Source: a virus. From it: DNA of 64,000 nt. This document shows positions 9,119 to 64,000 of this stretch, one piece after another. A program made the position numbers and the translations under genes. The stretch's first letter is position 1. Each line of letters starts with the position of its first letter. Location of the stretch: the IMG/VR virus record IMGVR_UViG_3300046170_000524, one strand, 5' to 3'. Under the pieces are notes generated by a model. It was not told where the DNA came from, ran no database searches, and was given only the letters and a program-made list of their open reading frames with translations.

Positions 9119-10046
9119 TATTTGTAAGATTTGCTCTCTTGAGTTTGAGAGCGAAAAGAAACTTCATATGCACTTGAGGTCTCACAAGATTACTTTGGCG
9201 GAATATTACTTAAAGTATTACCCCAGGTATAATTTATATTTACAATCTATAGGCAAAGAAGAGCTTCTCCCTTTTAAAAACAAAGAGCAATATTTTTCTA
9301 AAGATTTCTCCACAAGAGAACAACTTTTAAAATGGTGTGAAAGTGAGTCTGCAGAAATTGTTAAGCCATATATATTAAGATTGCTAAAAAAAAGAATAGA
9401 GGGGAAAGATTTAAACTTCGCTCCCTCTCATCTAGAGTTGGCGGTGAATGAAATGCCAACTATCGAGCTTTATCAAAAACATTTTGGGTCATATTCATCC
9501 GCTTGCAATGAAGTTGGAGCGAAGCCAATGTTTGGATCTAAATTACCAAATGAGTGGACTAAGGATGTAGACCCTACGATAAAAATATTTATTGATACAA
9601 GAGAACAGCAGCCTTTGACTTTTCCTAATTCGGAATTATTAAAATTGGATTTCGGAGATTACGCAGTTGGAGGAAAACATTATGACTATACTTATGTAGA
9701 CCGCAAAGGCGAGCAAGATTTTAAGTCAACATTAAGCAAAAATAACCTGGAAAGATTTAAATATGAGTTGGAGAGAACCAAGAATTTAGATTCATATTTA
9801 TTTATTGTAACGGAAGGTAGTATATCTAGTATAGAAAAAAATAATCGTTGGGCGCCTCATATGTCTAACATGAAATACATTTACCATAACATGAGAGTAT
9901 TAGCTCATGAATTCGCAGGTAGCTGCCAATTTATTTTCACTGGGAGCAGAGAAGAATCAGAAAGAATTATTCCAAAGATATTAACGTTAGGAAAAAAGCT
10001 TTGGGGCGTTGATTTGCAGTATTACATAGATAATAATTTAATATAA
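9108..10046 (+). CDS. C2H2 zinc finger + ERCC4-domain endonuclease
   Basis: CKICSLEFESEKKLHMHLRSH; IFIDTREQQP...LDFGDYAV...VDRKGEQDF corresponds to the ERCC4 DxRE/GDY/ERK motifs. Confidence 0.8.
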   Translation: MSSNICKICSLEFESEKKLHMHLRSHKITLAEYYLKYYPRYNLYLQSIGKEELLPFKNKEQYFSKDFSTREQLLKWCESESAEIVKPYILRLLKKRIEGKDLNFAPSHLELAVNEMPTIELYQKHFGSYSSACNEVGAKPMFGSKLPNEWTKDVDPTIKIFIDTREQQPLTFPNSELLKLDFGDYAVGGKHYDYTYVDRKGEQDFKSTLSKNNLERFKYELERTKNLDSYLFIVTEGSISSIEKNNRWAPHMSNMKYIYHNMRVLAHEFAGSCQFIFTGSREESERIIPKILTLGKKLWGVDLQYYIDNNLI

Positions 10047-38703: not shown

Positions 38704-39110
38704 TTTAATTTAATTATTAAATTCGAAAGTTCTTTGCTGATTGGATTTGGCAAGGTTTTTTCTTCTATCTTAAAAAATCCCCATTCATCATGTTCGAAGG
38801 CATCTTTTGCTGAAGTAGAGGGAAAAATTAAGTTTTTTACTTCAAAAGAAAATAAAGAAAAATATTTATTTGGATGAATTTCAAAATCTCCGACAAACTC
38901 AAGGTCTTTTTTTGCAGAAATTCCTGTTTCCTCAAAAAATTCTCTTCCAGCTGCACTCTTGGGGGTTTCTTTTTTCTCTATCATTCCGCAAGGAACAGAC
39001 CAGTAGCCTGTAAAATTTTGACAAACAAGACTTCTCCTTCCGAGTAAAACTAAGTTGCCAAATTTAACGGCGATGCCTGCGGCGATATAATTTTTATTGA
39101 AGGAAATCAT
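38700..39110 (-). CDS. NUDIX hydrolase
   Basis: Canonical Nudix box GMIEKKETPKSAAGREFFEETGI. Confidence 0.9.
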   Translation of the reverse strand: MISFNKNYIAAGIAVKFGNLVLLGRRSLVCQNFTGYWSVPCGMIEKKETPKSAAGREFFEETGISAKKDLEFVGDFEIHPNKYFSLFSFEVKNLIFPSTSAKDAFEHDEWGFFKIEEKTLPNPISKELSNLIIKLK

Positions 39111-40170
39111 CTATTTTTGCTTTGTTTTGCCAATGCGGGCAGCCCTCATAATTCATTTTCACTATTTCATCTCCTTCTTCAGGCTCGAGTTCGTGTTTGC
39201 AGTCAATGAATGCACTTTTTTTGATTTTACCTTCAACATCTTTTAATGCATAATATTCCATAGGTTTTCTATATGGACAAATAAAAGCTTTAATTGGTTC
39301 CCCATTCTTGTCTAAAATAGGCTTTCCTTTTGACATTTTATAACCATCTTTTCCGCAAGCCAGTGGACCTCCGAAGGTTCCATCTCTTGGGAAGTCTTGC
39401 TTAGCCGCAAGGTTACTAATTGCAGTGGCCTCATTGAAATTATCTAAATATTCTTGAAACTGTGTTAATTGATACTCAAATCCTTCAAGCTCTTCTGGAG
39501 TTATTTTATCCATGCGCAAATAACCTTTTCCGTAATTACCCAAAAGATCTTTATCTAGGTCAAATCTCAAAAATAAAAACTCGCTCTGGGGGTCTGTTTC
39601 TGGCATAAGGTGTTTTACCGCTAAGCAATATATTAAGTTCTGTAAATTATCTGTTACCTCTTTACCTTTAAAAACTGACTTGCTACTTTTAAAATCTCGA
39701 ATAATGACCGAATTGTCTTTATATACAAAAAGTTTATCTATATATCCACGAATTGCATATCTAATACCTTGTTCTTCTTTGTGTATTTCTAAATCAAAAA
39801 ATTGTTCCGACTCTGCTTTCACAGGCTTTTCTTCGCTATCTCCAAAGAAATCACATCGTAGGCCGTTAACTATCATTTCGTCAATAAGTTTAAGATTTTC
39901 TGAATCATTAACAGAAAGCTCTTGAGCTTCTTTTTTTACCTGTGCCGCAACGACTTCCGTATTCCAGATGGTTCCCTCTTTTACTATTTTATTAAATTCT
40001 CTTTTATGTTTATCGCCTAATAGCTCAAATACATTATGACAAATAGTTCCTCGACTTGACCCGTCATTTCCAGAATCTGGAAGCTTGAGCTTGTAATTGC
40101 ACCAATAAGTCCAACTGCAGGTTTGTGCAGTTTTTATTCTACTTGCGGATAATTTTGTTAACTCACTCAT
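39094..40170 (-). CDS. PD-(D/E)XK nuclease (RecB/AddB-like)
   Basis: KLSASRIK, RGTICHNVFE, IRGYIDKL, IRDFKSSK, QNLIYCLA; C-terminal Cys residues. Confidence 0.85.
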   Translation of the reverse strand: MSELTKLSASRIKTAQTCSWTYWCNYKLKLPDSGNDGSSRGTICHNVFELLGDKHKREFNKIVKEGTIWNTEVVAAQVKKEAQELSVNDSENLKLIDEMIVNGLRCDFFGDSEEKPVKAESEQFFDLEIHKEEQGIRYAIRGYIDKLFVYKDNSVIIRDFKSSKSVFKGKEVTDNLQNLIYCLAVKHLMPETDPQSEFLFLRFDLDKDLLGNYGKGYLRMDKITPEELEGFEYQLTQFQEYLDNFNEATAISNLAAKQDFPRDGTFGGPLACGKDGYKMSKGKPILDKNGEPIKAFICPYRKPMEYYALKDVEGKIKKSAFIDCKHELEPEEGDEIVKMNYEGCPHWQNKAKIDDFLQ

Positions 40171-43044: not shown

Positions 43045-43455
43045 CTATAAATTAACACCAAAACTTTTAAAAAGTTTTTCGTCTACAACATCTCCATCGT
43101 AAATTTCTATAAGCTGTATTTTATTGATTTCACAAAACTTTAATTTATCTCTATCTCTCTGCAGTTGATTGATATAATTAATTTTATTTTTGCCGTGAAA
43201 AAAAGGAACGTATTTTGTATGTTGTTTACCTTGTACCTCTACTGCTATTTTTTTATTGGCGTTATAAAAGTCCAAAGAAAGTTTTGTGCCTGCGACAGGG
43301 AATTCTTCAAAGACGATGTGGTTTTTCCAATATTTATAAAGAAATTTTTTTACATTAAACTGTATTTTACTTCGGCTTGATCCTTCCCAATCTATCAAAT
43401 AATTTTTAGCTTTTTTAACCGCCCTGTCTGCTCCGCTTAAAGTCTTAAAGCGCAT
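43045..43455 (-). CDS. Vsr/DUF559-like endonuclease
   Basis: EEFPV...LSLDFY...IAVEVQGKQH...RDRDKLKFC. Confidence 0.75.
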   Translation of the reverse strand: MRFKTLSGADRAVKKAKNYLIDWEGSSRSKIQFNVKKFLYKYWKNHIVFEEFPVAGTKLSLDFYNANKKIAVEVQGKQHTKYVPFFHGKNKINYINQLQRDRDKLKFCEINKIQLIEIYDGDVVDEKLFKSFGVNL

Positions 43456-44551
43456 TGGTTAAATTTTTAAAATCTTCATAGAGAAAATCCGAAAGCTTTT
43501 CATTTTCTTCTAAAAAGTCAATCAACCTTTGTTCTCCTTGAAATTTCTCGTTAATCTCTAGTTTTTTGTCAGAAAGTTCCTGAATAAGGTCTTGGGATAC
43601 AGAAATCCAAGCTCCTTTCTTTTCTATTAAGTTAAATAGATATAACATGTCTAAAATTTCCCTAGCTCTCCAAACGGACTTGCCGTTTTTTTGCCCGTAT
43701 TTAATGGGGTATCTTACTGTGGAACCTGTTTTTTCGTTTACGCTTTTTCTGAATTTTATTTTGCAGTAATGCCCGATAGGCTCACCTTTATCATCTAATT
43801 TTGTGGCTGTGGGATTTTTGAAGATTAAGTCCGAGTTATATCTTTCTTCAAACTCAAGAATGAAGTTGGCATAATGTTTGATTGCATTGCCACCAGCTTG
43901 CTTTACCCTTGGACCTCCTCTGGCTGCATATGGGTTTGTTGCGACTTCTACGCGAACTTGGCTGGTTAAGATCATTGTGTGACCCATTTTTGTAATTGGT
44001 AAAACCATTTTTTTTAAAAAGACAGAAGTAATTAGTGCTCCGCCCGCTACTTGCTCTGACTCTGCGAAAGGTTTATCTATGTCTCCAACTCTACATAAGG
44101 CATCAACGCTATCAACAATAAACATATATTTTTTATCATTTTCATTATTAAATACAAGCTCTCTAATTAGCTCAAAAACTTTTTCAAATATATTGCAGTC
44201 AAAGCAAAAGAATTTTTCAGGATCAGTATCTATTCCTGATCTTTCAATCATTTCTGGACTAAATCTACCTTCGCTTTTTATGTATATAATCATACCTTTT
44301 TTTCCGAAATGTTTCTGGAAGTTTCTTGCAAATGCCATTGCGCAACTAGTTTTACCTCCTTCGTTAATCCCTGTAAATCTGTGTGCGCCGCTCGGTAGTC
44401 CTCCGCCTAATGCGATATCAAGATTAAGGCTGCCGCTTGAAATTTTGTAATCTTCAGATTCGTGAAAATTGTAGTGGTATTTTTGATTATCTTTGTCAGA
44501 TAAAAATTTTGCTATTTGATCTGTGGTTTGAATGTCTTTAGTTTTGCTCAT
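43445..44551 (-). CDS. recA: RecA-like recombinase
   Basis: ISSGSLNLDIALGGGLP, GINEGGKTS, IVDSVDAL, SQVR, GGNAIKHYA. Confidence 0.9.
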   Translation of the reverse strand: MSKTKDIQTTDQIAKFLSDKDNQKYHYNFHESEDYKISSGSLNLDIALGGGLPSGAHRFTGINEGGKTSCAMAFARNFQKHFGKKGMIIYIKSEGRFSPEMIERSGIDTDPEKFFCFDCNIFEKVFELIRELVFNNENDKKYMFIVDSVDALCRVGDIDKPFAESEQVAGGALITSVFLKKMVLPITKMGHTMILTSQVRVEVATNPYAARGGPRVKQAGGNAIKHYANFILEFEERYNSDLIFKNPTATKLDDKGEPIGHYCKIKFRKSVNEKTGSTVRYPIKYGQKNGKSVWRAREILDMLYLFNLIEKKGAWISVSQDLIQELSDKKLEINEKFQGEQRLIDFLEENEKLSDFLYEDFKNLTNAL

Positions 44552-49533: not shown

Positions 49534-50013
49534 ATGGGAGCGTTCGAAACTTTTGTTAATGCCAACTTAGGTATACGGAAGCCTTTAATTACTGACTCTG
49601 GTCATCCTTCTGGCAGCGCAAAAGCTGCGGGAGTAGTCGGCTCTCATTATATAGATTCTGATACAAATTTTATATATGAAAAGACAGGAGAAAACAATTC
49701 TGCAGATTGGGTTAAAATACGAAGTCTGGGAGAAACTGTGCAAGATGTTGTAAGTAACGAAAGACCTTTTTCTGCATCCCTTGACCTGCCGACTGGAGTT
49801 GATACATTATCTTACAGTTATCAATCTATTGGGGACAACACTAATTACAACTCCCCCCCTCAAGTTATAGCTTCAATGAGACTGGGGGAAGATTCAGAAT
49901 TTTTTTACGCATACTCAACATACAATGTTAGTACTACTGGATTTTACATAGCATTTTCAGATCAAATATCAGAAACAGGCAATCATTTAGATATTTCTAT
50001 TCATAAAGACTAA
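49534..50013 (+). CDS. Virion structural protein
   Basis: Between portal and fibre genes; its C-terminal beta module resembles those repeated in the fibre proteins. Confidence 0.55.
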   Translation: MGAFETFVNANLGIRKPLITDSGHPSGSAKAAGVVGSHYIDSDTNFIYEKTGENNSADWVKIRSLGETVQDVVSNERPFSASLDLPTGVDTLSYSYQSIGDNTNYNSPPQVIASMRLGEDSEFFYAYSTYNVSTTGFYIAFSDQISETGNHLDISIHKD

Positions 50014-50055: not shown

Positions 50056-53000
50056 ATGGCAATTAATCAATTATATTTAATTAAAAGTGGAGAAAATTCA
50101 TTTGTTGAGGAAACAGGGACAATTATTAGTATTAGTGGGGGGCAGGTTGGTATAGGAACAAGTGCTCCTGAATCATATCTCCATATTACTGGAAGCACTC
50201 AGATCGATGGCGACTTAACTGTTAAGGGTAATTTTTCTACAGTTAATGAAACAACTGTGCAGATTGATGACAAAAATATTGAATTAGGTGTTGGATCAAA
50301 TTCTGATATGCTGTCCAATGGAGGAGGTATAACCCTAAAAGGCTTTACCGATAAAACTATTACTTGGTTAAACTATAATGACGCATGGAATTTTAATACA
50401 AATATTTACGTAGATGGTAGCGGTAATTTCGCCTCAGGGGTTAATATAGAGGGGGAAGCTGTTTTTAATTCGGACTTGAATGTAAGCGGTAACGGTAATT
50501 TCGCCTCAGGGGTTAATATAGAGGGAGAAGCTGTTTTTAATTCGGACTTGAATGTAAGCGGTAACGGTAATTTCGCCTCAGGGGTTAATATAGAGGGAGA
50601 AGCTGTTTTTAATTCGGACTTGAATGTAAGCGGTAACGGTAATTTCGCCTCAGGGGTTAATATAGAGGGAGAAGCTGTTTTTAATTCGGACTTGAATGTA
50701 AGCGGTAACGGTAATTTCGCCTCAGGGGTTAATATAGAGGGAGAAGCTGTTTTTAATTCGGACTTGAATGTAAGCGGTAACGGTAATTTCGCCTCAGGGG
50801 TTAATATAGAGGGAGAAGCTGTTTTTAATTCGGACTTGAATGTAAGCGGTAACGGTAATTTCGCCTCAGGGGTTAATATAGAGGGAGAAGCTGTTTTTAA
50901 TTCGGACTTGAATGTAAGCGGTAACGGTAATTTCGCCTCAGGGGTTAATATAGAGGGAGAAGCTGTTTTTAATTCGGACTTGAATGTAAGCGGTAACGGT
51001 AATTTCGCCTCAGGTTTATTTTTTAAAAACCAACCCGTTTTAACCGGAATAGAGTCTGATTTGAGCAAATGGAAAATAAATGATACTCCAAGCTCTGATA
51101 CATATAACGTAAACATTTCTGGGGATGGTCAAGACTATTTATTCTCTGAAGACTTCGAAGGGTTGGACCCTGAAATTAAAATTAAAAGTGGTGGCACTTT
51201 AGTTTTCAGTAATATAGGTCAAGGGCACGCTTTGGCTGTAAAAAATAATGAAAATGTCGATGTCTCGGTAGAGTCTAATAATCAGACAATATTTGCTCCA
51301 ACTCAAACTGGAATATATACGTATTATTGCCAATCTCACCCTGAAGTTATGAAGGGGCAAATTCACGTTTTAAATAACCAGGAAATTTTTTATAATGACG
51401 GTGACGTGGGTATTGGAACGGATAGTCCTGCCTACAGCTTGGATGTTGTGGGCAAGGGGAACTTTAGCGAAGGTCTTTATGTTAACGGAAACTCTGTCTT
51501 GACTGGTAGCACCTCTGTTTTAGGAAAATGGGAAGACGGCGCGGAAGCTGGAGAGATTTTTTATAAAGCTGGAAATGTAGGTATCGGAACAGATAACCCT
51601 TCTTATAATCTAGAGGTTAAGGGTAGCGGAAATTTTTCAGAGGGATTGTATGTTAACGGAAACTCTGTCTTGACTGGTAGCACCTCTGATTTAGGAAAAT
51701 GGGGAGACGGCGCAGAAGCTGGAGAGATTTTTTATAAGGCTGGAAATGTAGGTATCGGAACGGATAATCCTTCTGTAAATCTTGACGTAGTTGGAAAGAC
51801 TCAAGTAAGCGAATCTTTTTCTGTTTCGAACATTTTTTCTATAGATGATCAGGGGCGAGTCGGTGGTCAGACACCTTTTTCTAATGATGTTATACAGTGG
51901 GATGGATTAAAATGGGTAGCCGCTCAATCTGCTGAGGGTGGTTCGAATGGTGGGGGAGAAGTCCCTTCTGCTTTATTATATAATTTATCAAGCGGAGAGT
52001 CCATTCAGCAAGTCTCGTTTGGGCAGACTTTTAATGTTATTCCTCGCATAGCAACAAATCTTGAAATTAATGGAGAAGGGTCTATTATTCCTTACATTAT
52101 TTCTGGATTGAGTACAAGCGGTTATAATGCGGTTTTTGCCAAAAAAATACCAAACAATAATTATCGAATTCATACTGTTTTTGGTGGTAAAGATGTTTAT
52201 TGGGAAACTGGCGTATCAAATAGTTTGGTTTATAATGATGGAGATGTTAATTTATTAAGAAATTTAAGTGTTAGTGGAAGTTTGACTGTGCAAGGAAGTC
52301 CTGTATTAACCGGAAGCGTTTCAGATCTTGGGAAATGGGAGGATTCAGTAACCGCTGGAGAAATTTATTATAATGGCGGAAATGTGGGTATTGGTACAAT
52401 TGACCCCGCTTATAGCTTACATGTAAATGGAACAATTTACAATCAAAACGGAGGAATCAATGTCGCCAATAAATTTAATGTTTCTACATTGGGTGCAGTT
52501 GGTGGACAAAGTCCAGATTTTAATGAAGTAATCAAATGGGACGGAACAAAATGGATTGCTGGTAGCGCTCCTGGTGGTGGAGCTACTTCATCAAGTGAGG
52601 CGCCAAGTGCATTTGATACTTGGTTAAATCAGGGATCTGCAATTCAAGTAATTTCATTTGTTGATGCTCCTGAAGGTGGTTATCAATCAATTCCTTCAAT
52701 TTCTACAGACGTAGAGATTATTGAGGGGGATATTATTCCTTATGCTATATCTGGAGTTTCTACAACCGGATATTATGCAGTATTTTCCGATCCAATTCCT
52801 ACCGCTAACAATTATAAAATTCATACCACTTTTGGAGGTAAAGAGGTTTATTGGCAAACTGGTGCTGGCGGAAACTCAATTTATTATGATGGTGACGATG
52901 TTTCTGTAGACAATCTAACTATTGGCGGAAATCTTACGGTCAATGGCACGCAAACTATTGTTAACACAGAAACTGTGGAGATCGAAGACCATAATTTGGT

Positions 53001-55411
53001 TATCGCGGCGAATACAGGGCACAATCAATTAACCGCTGAATATCCTGGAGCTGGTGGTGCATATGCCGGTATACTTTGGGGTACTGGAGATGCTGGTGCA
53101 GCGTCACCTGTTAGTTTGACATATCAGTCGAACAAGGGTTTTGCATTTGAAGGCGGTAACGTAGGTATTGGCACCTCGAGTCCTGAAGGTAGATTACACG
53201 TTAAGGCTTCTAGCTCTGGGGCTACTGATGTTGCAGATGGAACTTTAATAGTAGAGCAAGGATCAAATCCTTCTATTCAGATTCTTTCAGCAGAAAATCG
53301 AATTCAATCAATAAAGTTTGGTGATCCTCAAGCTGGTGATGTAGGAAGAATAACTTATTCTCATCTGGACGACAAAATGAGTTTTGTTAGCAACGGCACA
53401 TCAAACATGACTATCGACTCCGCAGGCAACGTAGGTATTGGTACTACGGAGTCCTAGTTATAAGTTAGATGTTGAAGAAGCTACTAATGCAACTTATGCA
53501 GCTAGAATATTTAATAGAGGTGGAGATTCATATGGTTTGCTTGTTAAGACATTTTCTCAGGATGATGAGACATATCCTATACTCGATTTAGAGAATTCAA
53601 CGTCAAATGTGTTTAGGGTGCAAGCGAACGGCAACGTAGGTATTGGTACTACGAGTCCTGATGAAATGTTACATGTTGTAAACACATCAGGCGGCTCTTC
53701 TATTAAGATTGAAGGAGCAGCAGCAAGTTCAAGTAATATATTATTTGGAGATGCAGGTGGTAGAGTAAGATACGACTACGCTGCAGATAATATAGCATTA
53801 TGGACAAGCGGAACTGAAAAACTTACTGTCACAAGTGGCGGCAACGTAGGTATTGGTACTACGAGTCCTGATAGACTTATGCATCTTGCTTCTAATGCTG
53901 CGATAATTTGCATAGAAGATACCGCAGGTGCTACAGATGACAAGCGAGCGCAAATTCAGGTTGATGATGGTAAATTTGAAATCAACAGTCGAAACGATGA
54001 CAATAGCAACAGAACTGACAATATTTTTGTAGCCGATTTAGGCACAGGCAACGTAGGTATTGGTACTACGAATCCTAGTGCTAAAACAGTCATTAAAAGC
54101 GGTGTAAACAGTTTACCTAATTCTGATATAAGTGCCGATACAGGCACGGCTTTAAGAATTTTGGGAGCAGATGAAGCTGCAATCGATTTGGGTTCAACAG
54201 GTAGAATTAATAATGGCGGGGTGGGTCAGTGGATTCAGGCTAGGCATAGTGGGAATGACAGCACTTATTATAATTTACTCTTAAATCCAAATGGAGGCAA
54301 CGTCGGTATTGGTACTACGAGTCCTGTTGGCGCGCTAGAAGTTAATGCTAACTCTACCGAAGTTGTACTTAGAGGAACTTCTCCTGATGGATTATCATTT
54401 ATTGACATTAAGAAACTCAACTCAGGTGATACAGAATTCAGTAACGCTTTATACGCTGGAGGTACATCAGGCGACTATATTTTTAGCAACGGCAACGTAG
54501 GTATTGGTACTACGAGTCCTAGTGCTAATCTTCATGTTCTTAAAGATATGGGTAATGCCAATGTAGATGGCAGTTTTACATTGCAGAAAACTGCATACAC
54601 AAGGTCAAGTTCACACCCAGAAGGTTCAGGGCAATTCATGACACACAAGTTGCATGAGCTAAGTTACTCTGGAGATTTCTCTACTAGTGGAAATAATCAC
54701 CTTAATGACACTATCATTGGACTCGATGTAAACTTGGACACTAATGCTGGCGGTCAATACGCTGCTTTATTCAACGGAGGGAATGTCGGTATTGGTACTA
54801 CGAGTCCTGGTTATAAATTGCATGTATCGGATGACCGTGACGGTAATTTTGTGGCTGAAATACAAAATACTTCAAATGGGACTATAGGATCTACAGGTCC
54901 ACATGGATTACATATTAAATATCGAAATTCATCTCCTGACCAAACACATATGGATTTTCTTAGATGCAGTGATTCCACAGCTACACGCATGCGAGTTTAT
55001 AGTGACGGTGACGTGTGGACAAGTGATTCAGGCTTTCTGTCTTCAGATGAACGTTTAAAGACTAATATTCAAGACGCAACTTCCAAACTGGAAGATATCA
55101 AAAGACTAAAAGTTCGTAATTTTGAATGGATTTCTGAATTTCACCCCGAAAAGGTTGGAGAAAAGAAAATTGGTTTTATAGCTCAAGAACTGGAAGAAGT
55201 TTTCCCGGGTCTAGTAAGTGATCACAATATCTCCTCTGATGATGGTGAAGTCGTGAATAGAAAAAGTATTCGCATGGGAGCTTTGATTCCTGTTCTCACC
55301 AAAGCAATTCAAGAACAACAAGCCATCATCGAAGACTTGAGGTCTCAAAACGAGTCGCAGCAATCCACAATTAACGATCTCATTTTACGTATAGAAACTC
55401 TAGAACAATAA
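50056..55411 (+). CDS. Long tail fibre with GNVGIGT repeats and C-terminal peptidase S74-like chaperone (one apparent indel at ~53449)
   Basis: ORFs 50056..53457 and 53438..55411 join if one G is removed from ggtactacgGagtcct; SDERLKTNI S74-like motif plus terminal coiled coil. Confidence 0.8.
50421..51014 (+). repeat. In-frame 72-bp tandem repeat, 8 full copies + 18 bp
   Basis: Unit encodes GNFASGVNIEGEAVFNSDLNVSGN; starts at 50421, 50493, 50565, 50637, 50709, 50781, 50853, 50925, 50997; only one synonymous difference (first copy). Confidence 0.95.
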
Positions 55412-57292
55412 TAAAAAATGAAAAATTTAAGAACAGGCACCGCGAAATTCGACACAATTAGAGCAAAAGATGCAAGTGGGTTGCATATTCAAGATGATGC
55501 AGGCAATGGGCTGTTTATCAAAGATGGAGGAAATGTAGGTATTGGTACTACGAGTCCTGATAAATTATTTCATGTGGAAACAAATGATACTAGCACAAAT
55601 GCTATAGCTAAATTTAAAAACGCTGGGGATGGTGATGCAACATTGCAGATAGGCAATGCTACTACAAATTTTGTTATTGGAATGGACAATTCAGATTCCG
55701 ATAAATTTAAGCTTGGATATGGTGATGCATTGGAAAGCATAACAGGAATGACTATCGACTCCTCTGCTAACGTAGGTATTGGTACTACGAATCCTGTTTA
55801 TAATTTGCAGGTTCAGGCATCAACGCCAATTGTTTCTATTGTTTCTAATGTTGATAGTTCATCAAGATTAAATTTATTCGAAAGAATAGGATCTGGACAG
55901 AGTTTAGGTGCTTTTATTAAATATAATGGTACTACGAATGCGTTAGAATTGGGCAATACTGTTAACGATAGTGATGCCGTGAATATATCTGTTTCTAGAG
56001 TTTCTGGCAACGTAGGTATTGGTACTACGAATCCTAATGCGAAGTTAGAGGTTAAGACAGCGGAAAACTTGCATATGCGAGTAGGAAGTCTTGCACCCGA
56101 AATAAGCCCTATAGTTCGATTTCAGGGTCAATCATCTTTGGGGCAAAATTGGTATGGAGACATACAGCTAGATGCAGAAGATGGAATATTTAGCATGTTT
56201 GCTCCTAATACGGTAGGCCCAATAGTTAAATCATTAAATATTATTCAAGGCGGCAATGTAGGTATTGGTACTACGAGTCCTGATTCTAAGCTTCATCTTT
56301 CCACAACAGGATTAGATGGCTTGCGGTTATCGGTTGATTCACAGAGTTATTATCACATGATTCGCCCTAATGGTGATGGCCTGTATATAGGTGCAGATGA
56401 AGACAGTTCAGGAGGATCAGGTGCAGACATCCGCCTAAACATCAAAGGAGATGAGAAGATGCGCATCGACTCCAACGGCAACGTCGGTATTGGTACTACG
56501 AGTCCGCAGCACAAACTTGATATTTCAACAGATGACACAAATGGGTTGAGGTTGATAAACCCTGCTGCCGCGAAAGTAAATCAAAGTAATGACCCGCCAG
56601 CAATTTTATTTCAGGCAAACGGATGGGACACTAATGTAGGATCAAGAGCATATTCAGCTAGAATCAGAGTAAACTCCAACTACTCAGGTGCATCAGATCG
56701 TGGGAACACGCATCCTGTGATGAATTTCGATCTAGAGACGAATGAAAACAATCCTGATGACAATCTAAGTACCAAGATGATGATCAATGCTGACGGCCAA
56801 GTCGGGATTGGTACTACTGATCCTAATGCTCGGCTCGAAGTTAAGACGAGAAACTCGGATGAATTGGCAATTCGAGTAATGTCTGCTAATGATAATTCAT
56901 TATTCGATATACGAAAGTCAGATAATGGAGATACTGAGTTTTTAAATACTTACTACAGTGCATCAGAAGGTGGATTATCAGGTGGTTTTGCATTTAAAAC
57001 TACTGATAATGCATCGGGCGCAGCAAAACAGACTCGTATGAGTATTCTACAGAACGGCCGAGTCGGGATTGGTACTACGAATCCTGATAAGCCTCTAGAA
57101 ATTGCGCAATCCGATGGTACTAGTGGGATTAGATTAAACTATATTCCATCCACTTATCCTAACAATTACCTAGCAGATATATACCACGATGGAGGTAATG
57201 GTTTAATATTAGAATCAAAATTAGGTTCCGCAACCATCGCAGGTGACATATTGCTTGCTCCAAATGGCGGCAACGTAGGTATTGGTACTACG
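53434..57292 (+). repeat. Dispersed in-frame ~27-30 bp repeat (ggcaacgtaggtattggtactacgagtcct consensus), 15 copies
   Basis: GG(T/G)ATTGGTACTAC core starts at 53434, 53639, 53849, 54056, 54305, 54500, 54788, 55538, 55775, 56015, 56261, 56486, 56804, 57065, 57278; further copies at 63543 and 63813. Confidence 0.9.
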
Positions 57293-57781
57293 GATCCTGG
57301 TTCTTATAAATTGAATGTGAATGGAGCGGCATTTTTCTCTAATACGATAACCGTAGATGCAACAAATTATACTTCTGACGACCGTGTCAAACACAACGAA
57401 CAACCAATCGTTGGCGCACTTGAAACACTCGGCAAGATAACTCCCAAAAAGTACATCAAAACAACCGAAATGTACGATGCAAATCACGATTTCGAACTTG
57501 ATGCAGATGGTAATCCGATTAATGAAAATGGCGAACCAGTAGAACATCGCATCGAAGCAGGTGTAATCGCGCAACAAGTATTGACTGTGGATGAATTGGC
57601 ATTTGCGGTCAGCCCAGAAGGCGTAGACGAAGATGGAGTTGTAACAAGCCCACATGGACTCGATTACAATAGTTTATTTACTTATGCAATCGCCGCAATC
57701 CAAGAACAACAGGAAATAATTGAAACTCAGAACTCTAGGATAGACGAACTAATATCTCGCATTGAAACCCTTGAGCAATAA
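55418..57781 (+). CDS. Tail fibre protein with GNVGIGTT repeats and peptidase S74-like C-terminus
   Basis: Eight GxVGIGTTxP repeats; TSDDRVKHNE...EAGVIAQ...YNSLFTY and a terminal coiled coil. Confidence 0.85.
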   Translation: MKNLRTGTAKFDTIRAKDASGLHIQDDAGNGLFIKDGGNVGIGTTSPDKLFHVETNDTSTNAIAKFKNAGDGDATLQIGNATTNFVIGMDNSDSDKFKLGYGDALESITGMTIDSSANVGIGTTNPVYNLQVQASTPIVSIVSNVDSSSRLNLFERIGSGQSLGAFIKYNGTTNALELGNTVNDSDAVNISVSRVSGNVGIGTTNPNAKLEVKTAENLHMRVGSLAPEISPIVRFQGQSSLGQNWYGDIQLDAEDGIFSMFAPNTVGPIVKSLNIIQGGNVGIGTTSPDSKLHLSTTGLDGLRLSVDSQSYYHMIRPNGDGLYIGADEDSSGGSGADIRLNIKGDEKMRIDSNGNVGIGTTSPQHKLDISTDDTNGLRLINPAAAKVNQSNDPPAILFQANGWDTNVGSRAYSARIRVNSNYSGASDRGNTHPVMNFDLETNENNPDDNLSTKMMINADGQVGIGTTDPNARLEVKTRNSDELAIRVMSANDNSLFDIRKSDNGDTEFLNTYYSASEGGLSGGFAFKTTDNASGAAKQTRMSILQNGRVGIGTTNPDKPLEIAQSDGTSGIRLNYIPSTYPNNYLADIYHDGGNGLILESKLGSATIAGDILLAPNGGNVGIGTTDPGSYKLNVNGAAFFSNTITVDATNYTSDDRVKHNEQPIVGALETLGKITPKKYIKTTEMYDANHDFELDADGNPINENGEPVEHRIEAGVIAQQVLTVDELAFAVSPEGVDEDGVVTSPHGLDYNSLFTYAIAAIQEQQEIIETQNSRIDELISRIETLEQ

Positions 57782-57801
57782 TTTATTAATTAAAAAATAA
57801 T

Positions 57802-60582
57802 ATGAAAGATTTTACAGCAACAAACGCAGAATTCGAAAGTATAGATATATCTGAAAAGTTTCAGGTTAGTGAAAGTGGGGCGATTGGTGGTGTTATTCCT
57901 AGTGGGGTAAATGATATTATTAAGTGGGATGGAAGTCAATGGATCGCAGGAATTAATCCCGGAGGAAACGGTGGAGGCGGAGGAGGATCTGGTGTTGCAG
58001 ATCCATTCACAACCAATTTAATTAGCGGCCAATCTCTGCAAAATATTTCATTTAATCAAACATTAGATTCTGCGCCAAGTATTGCTACTGATTTAGAAAT
58101 AGATGGAGATGGATCTATTATTCCATATACAATATCTGGATTAAGTACTACTGGTTATACAGCTATATTTGCAGAAGAAATTCCAAATAATAATTATAAA
58201 ATACATACGGTTTTTGGAGGGGGATCTTCGAGCGGAGGTAGCGAATTATCTGGAGAAGAATTAAGAGCAATAAATAAAACTATTGTTGATAGTCCAGTGG
58301 ATGTTTTTGTGTATGATACCAGTCGTGACAGTGATGGTGGCGCTTGGAGAAAGCGTACACAGAATACCAGTTGGTATAATGAGGAGTTGAATACCGCGAC
58401 TAGGGGTGCTCGCCGCGAATTTCCAGCAGTGGCTGTGATTGTGGCGGAAGCAGACAAGGTTACCATTTATGATGGTGATGATCCAGATTTGAGCATGTGG
58501 ATGGTGATCAATCAAATTGGTTCATGGAGTAATATATTTTTTAGTTGCTTGTATTGTTTAAATGGTAAGCTTGTTATCGGTAGTGGTAGTGGTTATACTG
58601 ATGTATGTTTCATTAAAGAGAGAATGTCTAAAATACATCCAGCTGCTGAATACACTGGTGATTATATTTGGAATGAACTAACGTACAATCCTCTATATGT
58701 TATTGAAAGACCTGGGCTTGGCATTGTTAATAACGTGATCAACGACGTCGCCATGACCGTACTACCAAACGCACCAATTGATGAAGATACTGGTTTACTG
58801 GTGCCTACAATTGCTGTGGCCACCGATGGTGGTGTGAGTGTGATAAAGGATGATGGAACGGTGGTGGATATAGTTTCAGATAACCTCAATGGAGAAACTC
58901 CTTTAGAAGTTGATTTTAGAGGGCGACTTTTGTATTTGCTTCTTGGTAGCAAAGAAAGTGTTTCTAATACTTGGAATAGTGTTTCAACAATTTATATCCC
59001 AGATGATGATGTTTCTACAACATACAGGTATTCAGGAGATTATATAGCTCAATATTCTAGGTACAATGGATTACCCTCAAGTGAACCAGCTAATTCTGGG
59101 CATGATATGCTGGTTCCCATTAATTCTCAAACGCATCTTCCAACGGCTCAAAGATCACGAGCAATCAACGTTTTGGGAACAGATCATTTGTATATTGGTG
59201 GAGAGGGATCTGAGGATAAAGCTGGTGGAGTTGCCGCAATCTCTGAAAATTTAACAAACCCAAAAAATGGGTTAATTGCACACACAACAAGCCGATACAA
59301 CACCGGTTGGATGCCCGGTGACATCAAACTTGCTGCATTGAGTGATAGTTTTGTGGAAAATGTGGGGGTGAATAGTGATGAGTTAGTGGAGAATGGCGAT
59401 TTTTCAACAGCTTTAGGTGATGAATGGAGTGATGAATCTACGGGTACAGGCTCAATTTCGCTAAACGCATCTGGCTATATTGATTTAATCTCTCAAGGCA
59501 GCAGCAATAGAGCTATAGCAGATCAATCATTTTCGACAGTTATAGGAAAAACATATACTTTATCTTTAGATGTAATAGCAACAGATGGAAATTCAAGTGT
59601 ATATCTAGGAACTTCTGCCGGAGCGAATGATATAACTTCGAGTGCATTAAACTTGTTATCTTTAGGTGCTCATGGTTTTACTTTTGTAGCCACAACCACA
59701 ACAACATTTATAAGATTATGGGGGTCTACCGAAAGTAGCACTAACTCTTTCGACAACATCTCAGTCCGTCTAGCAGTAGAAGATCGCAGTGTTAATGGCA
59801 ATGGTTTACAAATTGTTGGCGAAATACAAAAAACACCCGTTGCGCCCGGCGCGGATCTTGTGGCATACAGTGGATTCAGTGCGAACAATTATTTGGTTCA
59901 GCCATACAATGCGGATTTAAACTTTGGTACAGGGGATTTTTGTGTGATGGGGTGGCATTATGATGATTATTTGTCACACCTGCATAGCGCAACAGATGCG
60001 CAGAAAAGCGTTAGTATTACAGACTCTAGTAATAATTTTGTATTATTTTCAGGTAATGTTGGTAGAATAGATTTTGCAGTTGGCGGAGATAATTATAATG
60101 GGGTTATTAATAGTGTATTGATTGATAACTTGTGGCAGTTGGTTACATTCGCTCGAAAGAATAATGTGTTAAAGGTATATGTAGACGATAAGGTAGTATA
60201 TGAAGTCCCAGATTCAAGTCAAAATGTTAGCAATATAGGTGGCGATCTGTATTTAGGAGGTTATTGGCATAATGGTGCATTTATAACTCCAGGGGACTCA
60301 AAATCAGCTTTACTTCGCATCTCTTCCACCGCTCCAACCGCCGAACAAATCGCCAAGATCTATCGCGATGAAAAAGTATTATTTACTGAAGGCGCACAGG
60401 CCACATTATATGGCACAAGCGATGCCGTGACTGCACTTGCATACGATGACAGCGAGCAACTATTACATGTTGGCACAGCCAGTGGTCGCAGTGATTTCCG
60501 CGGACTTGCTCGTGTAAACAATACAACCACCGCAATTTCAAACAGCATCAGCGCAGCTGAAGGCACAATCATTCAAAACTAA
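57802..60582 (+). CDS. Tail/receptor-binding protein with carbohydrate-binding-like and LamG-like domains (paralogue A)
   Basis: ELVENGDFS module; WQLVTFARKNNVLKVYVD LamG-like pattern; shares blocks with the next gene. Confidence 0.7.
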   Translation: MKDFTATNAEFESIDISEKFQVSESGAIGGVIPSGVNDIIKWDGSQWIAGINPGGNGGGGGGSGVADPFTTNLISGQSLQNISFNQTLDSAPSIATDLEIDGDGSIIPYTISGLSTTGYTAIFAEEIPNNNYKIHTVFGGGSSSGGSELSGEELRAINKTIVDSPVDVFVYDTSRDSDGGAWRKRTQNTSWYNEELNTATRGARREFPAVAVIVAEADKVTIYDGDDPDLSMWMVINQIGSWSNIFFSCLYCLNGKLVIGSGSGYTDVCFIKERMSKIHPAAEYTGDYIWNELTYNPLYVIERPGLGIVNNVINDVAMTVLPNAPIDEDTGLLVPTIAVATDGGVSVIKDDGTVVDIVSDNLNGETPLEVDFRGRLLYLLLGSKESVSNTWNSVSTIYIPDDDVSTTYRYSGDYIAQYSRYNGLPSSEPANSGHDMLVPINSQTHLPTAQRSRAINVLGTDHLYIGGEGSEDKAGGVAAISENLTNPKNGLIAHTTSRYNTGWMPGDIKLAALSDSFVENVGVNSDELVENGDFSTALGDEWSDESTGTGSISLNASGYIDLISQGSSNRAIADQSFSTVIGKTYTLSLDVIATDGNSSVYLGTSAGANDITSSALNLLSLGAHGFTFVATTTTTFIRLWGSTESSTNSFDNISVRLAVEDRSVNGNGLQIVGEIQKTPVAPGADLVAYSGFSANNYLVQPYNADLNFGTGDFCVMGWHYDDYLSHLHSATDAQKSVSITDSSNNFVLFSGNVGRIDFAVGGDNYNGVINSVLIDNLWQLVTFARKNNVLKVYVDDKVVYEVPDSSQNVSNIGGDLYLGGYWHNGAFITPGDSKSALLRISSTAPTAEQIAKIYRDEKVLFTEGAQATLYGTSDAVTALAYDDSEQLLHVGTASGRSDFRGLARVNNTTTAISNSISAAEGTIIQN

Positions 60583-60583
60583 T

Positions 60584-63427
60584 ATGAGCGAAGTACAAAA
60601 AAAACAAACAAATCTACGCGAAAAACTCGCCGAGCTTCTGGATTTTAGAAAGATGCGCGACCGCTTGAGTGGTCTGGGCTTGTACATTGGAAAGGATCGT
60701 ACAAACACCGATGAAAATTTATTGGTTCGCGGTGGTGCTAATGTGGACGATCTACAACTTGCTGAAATTTCTGCGGCTGTGGGTGGCACAGCAGTGGATG
60801 TGTTTGTGTATGATACCAGCCGTGATAGTGATGGTGGAAAGTGGCGCGAGCGTACACAGAATACCAGTTGGTATAATGAGAAGTTGAATACCGCGACTAG
60901 GGGTGCTCGCCGCGAATTTCCCGCGGTTGCAGTGATTGTGGCGGAAGCAAACAAGGTTACTATTTATGATGGCGATGATCCAGATTTGAGCATGTGGATG
61001 GTGTTTAATGCTTCTGGCGGAAGAATGATTTGGGCAACTCAACTTAGTTGTGTAAATTCATTAAATGCTAAGTTATCAATAGGCTCTCCAGGTTCTGGTT
61101 TTAGGTATATTGATTTTATTTCAGAAGACATGAGGGAGTGGAGGACGACCGGCGTAAATTCTATATCTGGTAATATATCTGAACGAAATGCTGGAGATTT
61201 AAGTCTTCAAGATATTCCTGGGCAAGATGTTATAGTAAATCAAATAATAAACGACATCGCCATGACCGTACTACCAAATGCACCTGTTGATCCAGCGACC
61301 GGTTTGCCGACTCCCACAATTGCTGTGGCGTGCGGAGATGGATCGAGCTCGGGGTTTTCAATTATTAATCATGATGGCACAGTAGCAAACAAATCGTATA
61401 TAGAAAGTGCAAAAAGTCAAAGTGTATCATTTACTTCTGATAACAGATTGGTTGTTTCTCAAAAAAGAAATAGTAATGGTGATATTTGGGTGGCTATATA
61501 CGACAATTTAACGACCAGCACAAGCACAACTGGTGTTATTGTTCATGATCCAAACATATCTGTCAAGTATAATGATATTAATTATTTGAATTTACCCAAT
61601 ATTTTAAGTGGAACCACTGGTACTATTGGTGATAAATATATAATGTCTGAGAATGGACTAACTTTGATTGATGAAGGGGAGACTTATGTGGATGATGATG
61701 GTGCAAAAATTTACGGTATGGCTGCATACGCCACCTCCAAATACAACACCGGTTGGATGCCCGGTGACATCAAGCTTGCTGCATTGAGTGATAGTGTTGT
61801 GGAGAATGTGGGGGTGGATGAAAGTGAATTAGTTCCCAATGGAACTTTCGATTTAAATACAAATAACTGGAGCTCTACTAACTCAACCACATTGAGTGTC
61901 GATAATCAAAGATTAAAACTTCAAGGCATGGGAAGCTCTTATCCCACCGCATATACTTCGGTAAATGTTGTTGAAGGTATTGAGTACGAAGTTTCTGCGG
62001 AATATATCAGTAACTCTAACTCTTTTAGCGGAAGAATTCGAGTTAGTTCATCTAGTCCATTGGGTGGAGATATAGTTAATGGAACTATTAAAAGTGCAGG
62101 AACTACTCACGTTAATAGGTTTACTGCACCATCTACAGGAAGCGTTTATATTGCATTAATGCTTCAGGACTCAGGTGGTAATAGTTCAGGAATATGGGAT
62201 AATGTTTCTGTAAAGAGGAGCGGCGAACTAATAACAAATGGCGATTTTTCAAATGGAACAACTGGGTGGAGTGGTTTATCTGGAGGTGTTTTATCCATAG
62301 ACAATGAGCGATTAAAAATAGAAGAAACAACCAACGCTGTAGATGCTTATGCTGTTAATTCTAGCGTTATTCCAACTGTAGTTGGCAAAAAATATATAAT
62401 AACATGGCAATTTATAAAAGGCACCAATACGGGATTTTCGGTGCGTTTTGGTAATGGCGGCGATCAGACTTCTGATTACAAGTCTAACACTGTCGGGGAG
62501 TATACTGATGATGGATATTATTCATTTGAATTTACCGCAACAGCAACTGAGCTCAATTTATCTTTTATTGTAAACGAGGCGAGCACTTACGGTTTTGTAG
62601 ACAACGTCAGTGTTCGTCCCGTCGAAGCGGATCGTAGTGTTAACGACAATGGTTTGCAAATTTTTGGCGAAATAAACAAAACACCCGTTGCACCCGGCGC
62701 GGATCTTGTGGCATACAGTGGATTTAGTGAGAACAATTATTTGGTTCAGCCATATAATGCGGATTTGGATTTCACTGACACAATGTCTATAATGCTTTGG
62801 GTCAAAGGTGTTACAGGTAATTTTAATCCGATCGATAGAGGAACAAGAGGTGTTGATCATTCATATGGCTTGTATTTAAAGGATGCAGGTGGTGATATAA
62901 GATTTTATTATAGTGTTGATGGAACAACCGATCTTCGGGTTGAAATTGCAGATGGCGCTTCGTTGATACAATCGGGTTGGCACCATGTAGCTGTTTGTAC
63001 ATCGGAAGGAAAAATTAAAATGTATGTCGATGGAAAATTATTAAAAACCGCCGATCAGGTGGGCAATTTTTACTCACAATCAATCAATCAAAATGGACTT
63101 AGGGTTGGGAGAGGATCTATTAATTCTGCTAGTTGGGAAGATCACCTATTAGCTGCACTTCGCATTTCTGCCACTGCTCCAACCGCCGAACAAATCGCCA
63201 AAATCTACCGCGATGAAAAACCATTATTTCAACAAGGCGCGCAGGCCACACTATATGGCACAAGCGATGCCGTGACTGCACTTGCATACGATCAAAAAAC
63301 CGAACTTCTACATGTTGGCACAGCCAGTGGTCGCAGCGACTTTTCTGGATTATCTAGAGTTCACCAAACAAATTCTCCAGTAACTACTTGTATTGACGCC
63401 GAAGACGGATTAATCGCAGAAAATTAA
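60584..63427 (+). CDS. Tail/receptor-binding protein with LamG-like domain (paralogue B)
   Basis: Two NG(T/D)F modules; GWHHVAVCTSEGKIKMYVDG LamG motif; paralogous to 57802..60582. Confidence 0.7.
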   Translation: MSEVQKKQTNLREKLAELLDFRKMRDRLSGLGLYIGKDRTNTDENLLVRGGANVDDLQLAEISAAVGGTAVDVFVYDTSRDSDGGKWRERTQNTSWYNEKLNTATRGARREFPAVAVIVAEANKVTIYDGDDPDLSMWMVFNASGGRMIWATQLSCVNSLNAKLSIGSPGSGFRYIDFISEDMREWRTTGVNSISGNISERNAGDLSLQDIPGQDVIVNQIINDIAMTVLPNAPVDPATGLPTPTIAVACGDGSSSGFSIINHDGTVANKSYIESAKSQSVSFTSDNRLVVSQKRNSNGDIWVAIYDNLTTSTSTTGVIVHDPNISVKYNDINYLNLPNILSGTTGTIGDKYIMSENGLTLIDEGETYVDDDGAKIYGMAAYATSKYNTGWMPGDIKLAALSDSVVENVGVDESELVPNGTFDLNTNNWSSTNSTTLSVDNQRLKLQGMGSSYPTAYTSVNVVEGIEYEVSAEYISNSNSFSGRIRVSSSSPLGGDIVNGTIKSAGTTHVNRFTAPSTGSVYIALMLQDSGGNSSGIWDNVSVKRSGELITNGDFSNGTTGWSGLSGGVLSIDNERLKIEETTNAVDAYAVNSSVIPTVVGKKYIITWQFIKGTNTGFSVRFGNGGDQTSDYKSNTVGEYTDDGYYSFEFTATATELNLSFIVNEASTYGFVDNVSVRPVEADRSVNDNGLQIFGEINKTPVAPGADLVAYSGFSENNYLVQPYNADLDFTDTMSIMLWVKGVTGNFNPIDRGTRGVDHSYGLYLKDAGGDIRFYYSVDGTTDLRVEIADGASLIQSGWHHVAVCTSEGKIKMYVDGKLLKTADQVGNFYSQSINQNGLRVGRGSINSASWEDHLLAALRISATAPTAEQIAKIYRDEKPLFQQGAQATLYGTSDAVTALAYDQKTELLHVGTASGRSDFSGLSRVHQTNSPVTTCIDAEDGLIAEN

Positions 63428-63431
63428 TAAT

Positions 63432-64000
63432 ATGAAGATTACAAAACAAAAAATAAATCTCCGCGAAAAACTAAAAATTTTAGACAATAAGGTAAACTTT
63501 GAAGAGGTTGTGCGCGGCCTTGGAGAATACGATGGAAATGTAGGTATTGGTACTACGGAGCCTGATTTAAAACTTGAAGTCGCTGGCATGCCTGCTGCTG
63601 GTCAAGGGACTAATACAAGATCTAAAGTTTCTTTAGAGCCGTTTAGTGACCCGAATAGATCATTGGATATCTATTCAGATGGTGTGATTAATAGTTATAA
63701 CACTAATTCTCCCCAGGTTGGCTCGGGCGGACTACAGTTTCAAATTGGAGGGAGCACCGACCTGAGCATTAAAGGTGGTAATCGGCTGGAAGATTCTACA
63801 GTCGGCAACGTAGGTATTGGTACTTTGAATCCTGGTGCGAAACTGGAAATAGCTGAGCCTCAAGGTAGCCCTCAATTATTAATTAATAATAATGCAACTA
63901 GCTTTAATAGTGCGTCAATTAAATTTATTAGTGGAGGAACAGGAAATCCTGTAAGTCTAATTGAATCAGGAGGTACTAGTACTGACAGACAAGGATTATT
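63432..64000 (+). CDS. Further GNVGIGT-repeat fibre protein, 3'-truncated by the window edge
   Basis: MKITKQKINLREKLKIL...GNVGIGTTEP...GNVGIGTLNP; frame is open to the window end; N-terminus resembles KQTNLREKL of 60584. Confidence 0.75.
   Translation, partial: MKITKQKINLREKLKILDNKVNFEEVVRGLGEYDGNVGIGTTEPDLKLEVAGMPAAGQGTNTRSKVSLEPFSDPNRSLDIYSDGVINSYNTNSPQVGSGGLQFQIGGSTDLSIKGGNRLEDSTVGNVGIGTLNPGAKLEIAEPQGSPQLLINNNATSFNSASIKFISGGTGNPVSLIESGGTSTDRQGL

Follow-up and report, generated by a model that had tools for sequence, protein, structure and literature searches.

A 30-nucleotide repeat fixed at synonymous sites is a likely handle for in-frame cassette exchange in the tail-fibre genes of an uncultured marine phage

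We analysed a 64,000-nucleotide (nt) stretch of viral DNA, IMG/VR record IMGVR_UViG_3300046170_000524 (hereafter the window, meaning this whole stretch), from an uncultured, large marine phage with an AT-rich sequence (35.7% GC). In its tail-fibre genes, copies of one 30-nt in-frame repeat, which we call handles, alternate with dissimilar protein-coding segments, which we call cassettes, and the evidence presented here makes it likely that the handles serve the exchange of cassettes by homologous recombination. The fibre genes belong to a block of structural genes on the + strand (50056-63998); profile scans place a terminase, a DnaE-type polymerase, a DnaB helicase and a ribonucleotide reductase among the other genes of the window. 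The fibre genes and their main features are as follows.

50056-55411, + strand: fibre gene 1, about 1,790 codons, read in the window as two open reading frames (ORFs), 50056-53457 and 53438-55411
53452, + strand: extra T within handle 1 (ACG GAG [T]CC TAG), which disrupts fibre gene 1
55043-55216, + strand: Peptidase_S74 domain of gene 1 (PF13884, 53.5 bits, E 2.9e-14), with the motif S-D-E-R-L-K
55418-57781, + strand: fibre gene 2, 787 amino acids, with 8 handles, 7 cassettes and a C-terminal S74 chaperone
57374-57589, + strand: Peptidase_S74 domain of gene 2 (24.5 bits against a cut-off of 22, E 3.3e-5), with the motif S-D-D-R-V-K
63432-63998, + strand: third fibre gene of this type, 5' part, with two handles, continuing past the end of the window

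Fibre gene 1 has a stable N-terminal part (to about 53185), then a cassette array, and ends in an S74 chaperone. We treat its two ORFs as one gene because their homologue in a related sequence, L001, is a single uninterrupted ORF of 1,402 amino acids, because the extra T falls inside a repeat copy, and because precisely the letter at 53452 is missing from the contigs, otherwise about 99% identical, of X1 and X9, two public runs of seawater or viral metagenomes. Without that letter the frame in these contigs reads ...GNVGIGTTEPSYKLDV..., and the interval that contains it is the sole out-of-frame case among the 220 handle-to-handle intervals surveyed below. The extra T is either an assembly error, which is the probable case, or a rare variant. 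An initial annotation of the sequence had described 15 repeat copies across two genes; there are indeed two genes, although the window as it stands reads them as three ORFs on account of the T at 53452. The third fibre gene has a homologue in L001 (17134-19062) with five handles.

In the translations of both fibre genes the chaperone begins with the SDxxxK catalytic motif, as defined by Caulton et al. 2024 (PMC10769870). S74 was the only Pfam family detected in the fibre ORFs, with no match to the gp37/gp38 families, and the tip region matched the T4 gp37 tip (6F45) weakly (E 0.049). Residues 108-234 of ORF 53438-55411 align by phmmer to Bdellovibrio Bd2133 (PDB 8OND, E 1e-8), motif copies falling on motif copies. 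By sequence, the locus belongs to the S74 family of fibres, of the trimeric beta-helix type, and by homology its products would be intertwined homotrimers that release their chaperone autoproteolytically. In S74 fibres the pattern V-G-..-P-x-x-x-L forms 'capping loops' at the edges of intertwined trimeric beta-helix subdomains, and in Bd3182 two such loops delimit a surface cleft (Caulton et al. 2024, PMC10769870). One cassette of the window most likely corresponds to one beta-helix subdomain with its cleft, and the handle, by the same homology, would be the one site at which the fold tolerates the joining of any two subdomains.

The repeat reads GGC AAC GTA GGT ATT GGT ACT ACG AGT CCT and encodes GNVGIGTTSP. 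The conserved array reported in the initial annotation is real: the 15-mer GGTATTGGTACTACG, allowing up to two mismatches, occurs 17 times in the window against 0.05 copies expected by chance. All 17 lie on the + strand, within fibre ORFs and in the frame that gives G-I-G-T-T, with none elsewhere in the 64 kb. Fifteen fall within 53434-57292 (53425-57298 for the 30-nt repeat), and the two further copies that had been pointed out at 63543 and 63813 were found in the third fibre gene. The handles, preceded by a degenerate boundary copy, are listed here.

53155-53184, + strand: boundary handle, degenerate in the window (GGT ATT GGC ACC TCG), at which collinearity with L001 stops
53425-53455, + strand: handle 1, which includes the extra T
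53630-53659, + strand: handle 2
53840-53869, + strand: handle 3
54047-54076, + strand: handle 4
54296-54325, + strand: handle 5
54491-54520, + strand: handle 6
54779-54808, + strand: handle 7, the final one ahead of the gene-1 tip and S74 domain
55529-55558, + strand: handle 8, which opens gene 2
55766-55795, + strand: handle 9
56006-56035, + strand: handle 10
56252-56281, + strand: handle 11
56477-56506, + strand: handle 12
56795-56824, + strand: handle 13, variant GGG ATT GGT ACT ACT
57056-57085, + strand: handle 14, variant GGG ATT GGT ACT ACG
57269-57298, + strand: handle 15, the final one ahead of the gene-2 tip and S74 domain
63534-63563, + strand: handle of the third fibre gene
63804-63833, + strand: handle of the third fibre gene, with threonine changed to leucine (TTG)

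Successive spacings are 205 nt for the first, which carries the 1-nt frameshift, and then 210, 207, 249, 195, 288, 750, 237, 240, 246, 225, 318, 261 and 213 nt, all of these multiples of 3; the 750-nt spacing crosses the gene border. Codon identity extends over ten codons, from -3 to +6 relative to the GIG glycine. In binomial tests against the window's own codon usage, P for individual codons across the handle ranged from 1.5e-3 to 3.7e-15. ACG, which makes up 7.7% of threonine codons in the window, stands at 14 of 15 handles (P = 3.7e-15), and GGC, 17% of glycine codons, at 12 of 14; ATT, the second GGT and ACT are each present at all 15, and GTT, 51% of valine codons, is used in no handle. 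The 3' edge is sharp: a conserved leucine at +10, four codons past the proline, is spelled by five different codons, and the valine at +12 follows normal usage. A tRNA search of the window found no tRNA, so that a phage tRNA-Thr(CGU) is not the reason for ACG.

Conservation at synonymous sites is a classic sign of an overlapping nucleic-acid function, and the string could have some other role in DNA or RNA, as a site for a regulator or packaging factor or as an RNA element, with recombination a side effect. We regard this as very unlikely, because the 17 copies sit exactly on the peptide motif, in one frame of the fibre genes and nowhere else, DNA folding detected no significant dyad or secondary structure in the handle (z -0.33), and other lineages spell the motif differently. 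It also counts against such a role that the exact 24-mer of the handle was found in only 1 of 185,579 species genomes. In IMG/VR, the exact 24-mer is present in 57 contigs. That sole cellular match, L183 (NVRX02000007.1), is a 63-kb contig in a 'Candidatus Wolfebacteria' metagenome-assembled genome and has a fibre-like gene in which the spelling of the seven motif copies is mixed; the contig is probably viral and binned in error, and as such would carry no host information.

A second explanation for the fixed spelling is protein constraint together with translational selection, such as a pause at the rare codon ACG that helps co-translational folding, with no part for recombination. The motif is a conserved structural loop, and ACG, AAC and GTC are minority codons, both of which suit that explanation; most of the core, however, consists of common codons (GGT, ATT, ACT, CCT), and the same motif is spelled otherwise in the very same gene. 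Six copies with varied codons lie upstream in fibre gene 1, namely the boundary handle at 53155 and five in a region that serves as an internal control.

50140-52407, + strand: internal control region, five copies of the motif peptide with heterogeneous codons, starting at 50140, 51400, 51571, 51742 and 52378

Listing the codons of the upstream copies bore out the earlier description of them as varied. The control region is unshuffled and collinear with L001 at about 90%; 12-18% of fourfold sites differ between collinear genes of the window and L001, and synonymous differences separate two of the three upstream motif copies whose orthologues could be compared. IMG/VR was also scanned with a degenerate pattern that allows every spelling of GNVGIGTT; at least 120 viral loci were returned, of which 119 were analysed. 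Among the matches listed, these loci hold 224 copies with diverse codons, and the spelling of the window is not one of the 15 commonest. Five IMG/VR loci (L085, L092, L098, L126 and L138) each have a uniform spelling of their own, for example GGTATAGGTACTACA and GGTATCGGGACGACG, which roughly follows GC content, and may represent distinct exchange 'dialects'; in two others (L078 and L103) the spelling is heterogeneous. Because other loci vary or use their own spelling, uniformity is a trait of certain lineages and not of the motif, and because the same peptide varies in its codons upstream and in 119 viral loci, protein constraint is insufficient to account for the fixed codons. The claim that conservation at synonymous sites exceeds protein constraint is thus upheld by the binomial test, by the upstream control and by the 224 viral copies. 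Codon variation of the same motif elsewhere, together with the sharing of cassettes with breakpoints at the repeat described below, which constraint or pausing leaves unexplained, largely refutes this second explanation, and we consider it highly improbable.

Four relatives, L001 to L004, were retrieved by peptide patterns outside the motif, and their proteins are 60%, 35%, 32% and 36% identical to that of the window, respectively. Across the 71 array copies in the window and these relatives, ATT and ACT are invariant (71/71 each), the two GGT codons are kept in 66/71 and 68/71, and ACG in 59/62. Codon identity could also reflect recent tandem duplication of a single module, with too little time for synonymous change. 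Tandem arrays can form in this way, and a truly recent one, of 9 x 72 nt, is present upstream in fibre gene 1. The modules, though, have interiors that are unrelated in DNA and mostly in protein, the spelling is kept in relatives at 32-36% protein identity, and the leucine just past the handle has its five codons. BLASTP finds only two similar pairs of modules, although the modules share the flanking pattern xxxLxV...[ML]xIxxxG and are, on this pattern, probably structurally equivalent units. The earlier description of unrelated, in-frame spacers therefore holds at the DNA level and for most BLASTP comparisons, but not for the two similar pairs, the shared flanking pattern or the off-frame first interval. 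Since the interiors are unrelated and no cassette pair within any one source reaches 85% identity, recent tandem duplication, the simple explanation named in the initial annotation, is excluded; with the leucine codons, these facts refute it, and we give it next to no credence. A blastn search of the fibre locus against GenBank phages returned no match.

By blastn, collinearity between the window and L001, at about 90%, extends as far as the boundary handle (53155-53184) and resumes at 57062; between these points only single modules are common to both. Shuffling starts at the first canonical handle, and the region of heterogeneous codons stays collinear with L001. Other genomes do contain the same cassettes, bounded by breakpoints at the repeat, as the initial annotation had proposed to look for: seven cassettes of the window were found again at 89-99% nt identity in L001, L003, L004, L042, L058 or L062, and their alignments end 3-34 nt from the centres of handles. 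Forced alignments over four cassettes rose from about 50% identity to 97-100% across the whole cassette and fell back to about 50%, with the switch points at handles. The shared cassettes are these.

53838-54075, + strand: cassette common to L004 (95.4%) and L042 (97.4%), both ends inside handles
54290-54524, + strand: cassette common to L001 (97.0%), where it stands after, not before, the 54500 cassette
54487-54811, + strand: cassette common to L001 and L003 (96.6%)
56238-56505, + strand: cassette of gene 2, common to L003 (98.8%) and L001 (96.3%; in gene 1 there)
56459-56829, + strand: cassette common to L001, L003 and L004 (89-91%), with different neighbours each time
56793-57085, + strand: cassette common to L058 (95.2%)
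57065-57299, + strand: cassette common to L062 (93.2%)

Cassette order is not invariant among relatives. The order [54305][54500] of the window is reversed in L001, cassette 56261 of gene 2 sits in gene 1 of L001, and L003 has [56261][54500][56486] where the window has [56261][56486], so that the 54500 cassette is inserted. These changes of order, with breakpoints at the repeat, support the earlier proposal that the repeat is a handle by which fibre cassettes are swapped, both within a gene and from one gene to another.

We then surveyed cassettes in the 58 sources with canonical spelling, defining a cassette as the sequence between two canonical handles and a type by 85% nt identity. The survey yielded 220 cassettes in 184 types, with 219 of the 220 intervals in frame and no duplicated cassette inside any source. 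Twenty-eight types are common to at least two sources, and in 53 of 57 comparisons between sources the neighbouring cassette is a different one; in the collinear pair L002 and L039, 12 of 12 neighbours are the same, over 7 cassettes. The records of L003 and L004 (62 and 68 kb, estimated 83% and 72% complete) gave no match to the TerL, polymerase or RecA-like protein of the window, or to p662, a 662-residue structural protein that neighbours the fibre genes. A comparison of synonymous sites between p662 and L002 was thrown out, since indels had put it out of register. The L058 record has a DNA polymerase 62% identical and a RecA-like protein 49% identical to those of the window. Among the loci with other spellings, a sparse sample, only one cassette-like shared piece was found (L176 and L180, 326 nt, 89%), and it has motif copies at both ends.

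Mosaics of this kind could be assembly artefacts in which different phages were joined at a shared repeat. The comparison sequences are all metagenome contigs, Logan k=31 contigs break at handles, and the window itself holds at least one probable assembly error (53452). Yet standard assemblies use final k-mers and reads longer than the repeat, which reaches at most 34 nt of exact identity, and each shared single cassette would need two chimeric joins. Adjacencies also recur in independent metagenomes (56261-54500 in both L001 and L003; L002 and L039 over seven cassettes), and nearly all intervals are in frame. The locus is present in 20 runs. Among public runs, X1, X6, X9 and X11 provide Logan k=31 contigs that end at handles; those of X1 nevertheless span 8 window handles at 100% identity, backing the order of the window there, with 6 junctions unbridged. 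We therefore see little prospect that artefact accounts for the mosaics, and rate it as hardly credible.

Fifteen apparent joints in the k=31 contigs all start and stop at handles but have sides of only 21-38 nt, which is the repeat mapping to its other copies, and were rejected as evidence of alternative orders. Patchy or absent cover of single cassettes in X6, X9 and X11 was likewise not used as evidence. One X6 contig follows 54721-56046 with four differences and continues past handle 10 with 240 nt unlike the window, a hint of an alternative cassette. The boundary handle is canonical (GGT ACT ACG) in L001, X1 and X9; X6 and X11 contain both the canonical and the degenerate form. From the window to the X1 and X9 contigs, otherwise 99% identical, it changes by C53172T, C53175T and T53176A, and these three clustered changes hint at a short conversion patch. 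At the other end of the array, the last cassette and the S74 region of fibre gene 2 (57241-57706) match the tip of another L001 fibre gene (18354-18819) at 94% identity and the positional homologue in L001 (10818-12271) at 91.5%, which by sequence identity reads as a tip exchange between paralogous fibre genes.

ORF and Pfam analysis revealed no recombinase or nuclease gene in or adjoining the fibre locus. Elsewhere in the window, profile scans identified three candidate enzymes.

43445-44551, - strand: RecA/UvsX-family recombinase (phrog_97 E 4.7e-37; Pfam RecA E 1.4e-16)
39094-40170, - strand: PD-(D/E)XK exonuclease
9108-10046, + strand: ERCC4-type nuclease with an N-terminal C2H2 zinc finger

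The remark that no dedicated recombinase is visible is accordingly right in that nothing dedicated or site-specific was found, and incomplete in that the window does encode a RecA/UvsX-family recombinase (43445-44551) and a PD-(D/E)XK nuclease (39094-40170). The RecA/UvsX-family enzyme is a candidate catalyst of the exchanges, and the PD-(D/E)XK exonuclease a possible partner that would process ends.

The 30-mer might instead be the recognition site of a dedicated enzyme, a site-specific recombinase or homing-type nuclease, and not a substrate of general recombination. A 15-nt core almost letter-perfect across unrelated backbones, pairwise homology that is short for RecA-type exchange, and the ERCC4-type nuclease with its zinc finger (9108-10046) would all fit such an enzyme. 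On the other hand, no gene for one lies in or next to the fibre locus, the handle lacks a significant dyad or structure (z -0.33), and the L003 and L004 records share none of the tested backbone genes with the window. Uniformity within a genome alongside different spellings in other phages also fits homology better, and we judge a dedicated enzyme to be unlikely, with a small chance of being right. Homologous recombination at the handle, leading to in-frame shuffling of cassettes, is the reading that we hold to be likely, and general homologous recombination would be its mechanism.

Each fibre is a chain of modules of 46-96 residues with the capping-loop motif GNVGIGTTSP at each border. As the modules share no DNA but the string, homologous recombination of any two copies would join modules in frame and at a structurally neutral border. 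The recombining copies could lie in one genome at non-allelic positions, in paralogous fibre genes or in co-infecting phages. A single crossover would give a chimeric fibre, or the duplication or deletion of modules, and a double crossover would replace or insert one cassette. The string would stay identical because every exchange copies it, and copies that drift would leave the exchange pool. The outcome would be a combinatorial library of shafts and binding clefts that is likely to change receptor specificity and so to generate variation in host range.

Several points weigh against this reading. No recombination event was directly observed, and the k=31 contigs break at the handles; every sequence compared is a metagenome assembly. 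Pairs of window handles are exactly identical over only 9-34 nt (median 19). In E. coli, RecA-type exchange reportedly needs about 23-27 bp to be efficient, a figure attributed to Shen and Huang in 1986; because handle identity is at or below this range, the enzymology and efficiency of exchange are uncertain. Spelling selected for exchange and spelling merely homogenised by exchange are inseparable in these data. For this uncultured phage, an effect of shuffling on host range is a prediction.

The closest functional parallel is the T-even gp37/gp38 system, in which variable segments of receptor-binding genes are swapped by crossovers that fall preferentially at conserved motifs (Tetart 1998 J Mol Biol 282:543; Trojet et al. 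2011, PMC3157838), and in which natural and laboratory exchanges fall within or near the motifs (PMC3157838). Both have short conserved motifs between hypervariable segments, exchanges in or near the motifs, and chimeric fibres drawn from a shared pool. They differ in that there is no sequence relationship, the window fibres matching S74 only, and in that a single handle recurs 15-17 times over the length of entire shafts, in a regular array fixed at synonymous sites. The exchanged units of the window are whole structural subdomains, whereas those of T-even phages are loops of one domain, and the window spelling is common to phages without a detectable shared backbone. An effect on host range is demonstrated for T-even phages and is a prediction for the window phage. 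The locus thus works like the T-even system and is not homologous to it.

Among S74 or mosaic adhesive trimer (MAT) fibres, Bd2133, Bd3182, T5 pb1 and K1F endosialidase (PDB 8OND, 8ONC, 4UW8 and 3GW6) resemble the window fibres in having an S74 chaperone with SDxxxK and a repeated capping-loop motif. Caulton 2024 (PMC10769870) treats that motif as a protein feature and describes mosaicism at fibre tips; unlike the present analysis, it reports neither invariance of the motif at the DNA level nor exchange there. The T-even principle agrees with the broader view that fragments are shuffled in fibres: Smug et al. 2023 (PMC10684548) place tail fibres among the protein classes whose mosaicism is recent and involves fragments, in a statistical survey of proteins and hidden Markov models (HMMs) that names no specific junction sequence or mechanism. 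A literature search for the peptide NVGIGT found no paper, and matches to VGIGT were irrelevant.

Collagen-like repeats are said to have been proposed as recombination sites by Duplessis and Moineau in 2001. In the Streptococcus thermophilus antireceptor, repeats in the receptor-binding gene likewise flank a variable segment of host specificity (VR2; Duplessis and Moineau 2001, as cited in PMC5601072); in that second-hand account its repeats are collagen-like Gly-X-Y and bound one or two variable regions, unlike the 6-8 cassettes per gene of the window. The alternation of short identical repeats with unique segments of similar size recalls CRISPR repeat-spacer arrays and integron cassettes, in layout only: the repeats of the window are coding and in frame, its 'spacers' are protein modules, and it has neither a palindromic repeat nor attC structure. 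General profile scans of the window proteins found no cas or integrase genes. A diversity-generating retroelement was also rejected, as no reverse transcriptase appeared among the 30 window proteins compared with PHROGs (smaller ORFs lay outside that scan) and cassettes differ wholesale, not at A positions. The locus is not a CRISPR-like, integron-like or diversity-generating retroelement system.

In the literature searched, four features are not described: a single adaptor at every module border of whole fibre shafts, fixation of that adaptor at synonymous sites, its position at the S74/MAT capping loop, and its occurrence on unrelated backbones with a pool of at least 184 cassette types. Phage host range is largely set by fibre proteins that evolve through module exchange, and the DNA rules for frequent in-frame exchange are documented in very few systems, essentially T-even gp37/gp38. 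Here the rule is explicit, a 30-nt adaptor that coincides with the capping-loop border at every module boundary. It offers a test system for whether evolvability itself is selected, a marker in metagenomes that traces which uncultured phages exchange receptor modules, and a natural template for modular fibre design; annotators and assemblers should be cautious about breaks and frameshift calls at such repeats. More speculatively, and we put this forward as a tentative idea that may well prove wrong, the string could be a community-wide 'assembly standard' under second-order selection, by which one guild of marine phages uses one adaptor and a shared pool (at least 184 types) and other guilds have 'dialects' of their own. 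If so, the spelling would mark, like a barcode, which phages can exchange receptor-binding modules with one another, and a dedicated factor might read it.

Other observations concern the surroundings of the array. The N-terminal shaft of fibre gene 1 contains nine near-perfect 72-nt tandem repeats (50247-51110; units of 24 amino acids), and the equivalent stretch of L001 is 576 nt (8 units) shorter, so that shaft length varies in the manner of a variable-number tandem repeat. Directly after this tandem array the fibre protein has a cupredoxin-like segment (51130-51370; His ... Cys-x2-His-x4-Met: YYCQSHPEVMKGQIHV) with no Pfam match. Just upstream of fibre gene 1, a 159-amino-acid protein (49534-50013) has a weak match to H-type lectin (E 0.0034, below cut-off), and its N-terminal 67 residues were found again in L058 at 75% identity. 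The large subunit of ribonucleotide reductase (23902-26242) is read as two overlapping ORFs in different frames (23902-25119 and 25100-26242) that cover phrog_84 positions 61-452 and 452-768, probably another frameshift error of assembly. Downstream of fibre gene 2, 57802-63427 holds two paralogous genes (926 and 947 amino acids) with Laminin_G_3 domains, in which blocks at 82-91% nt identity alternate with unrelated segments. These paralogues are mosaic relative to L001 as well, and form a second, distinct pattern of shuffling that proceeds without the 30-nt handle.

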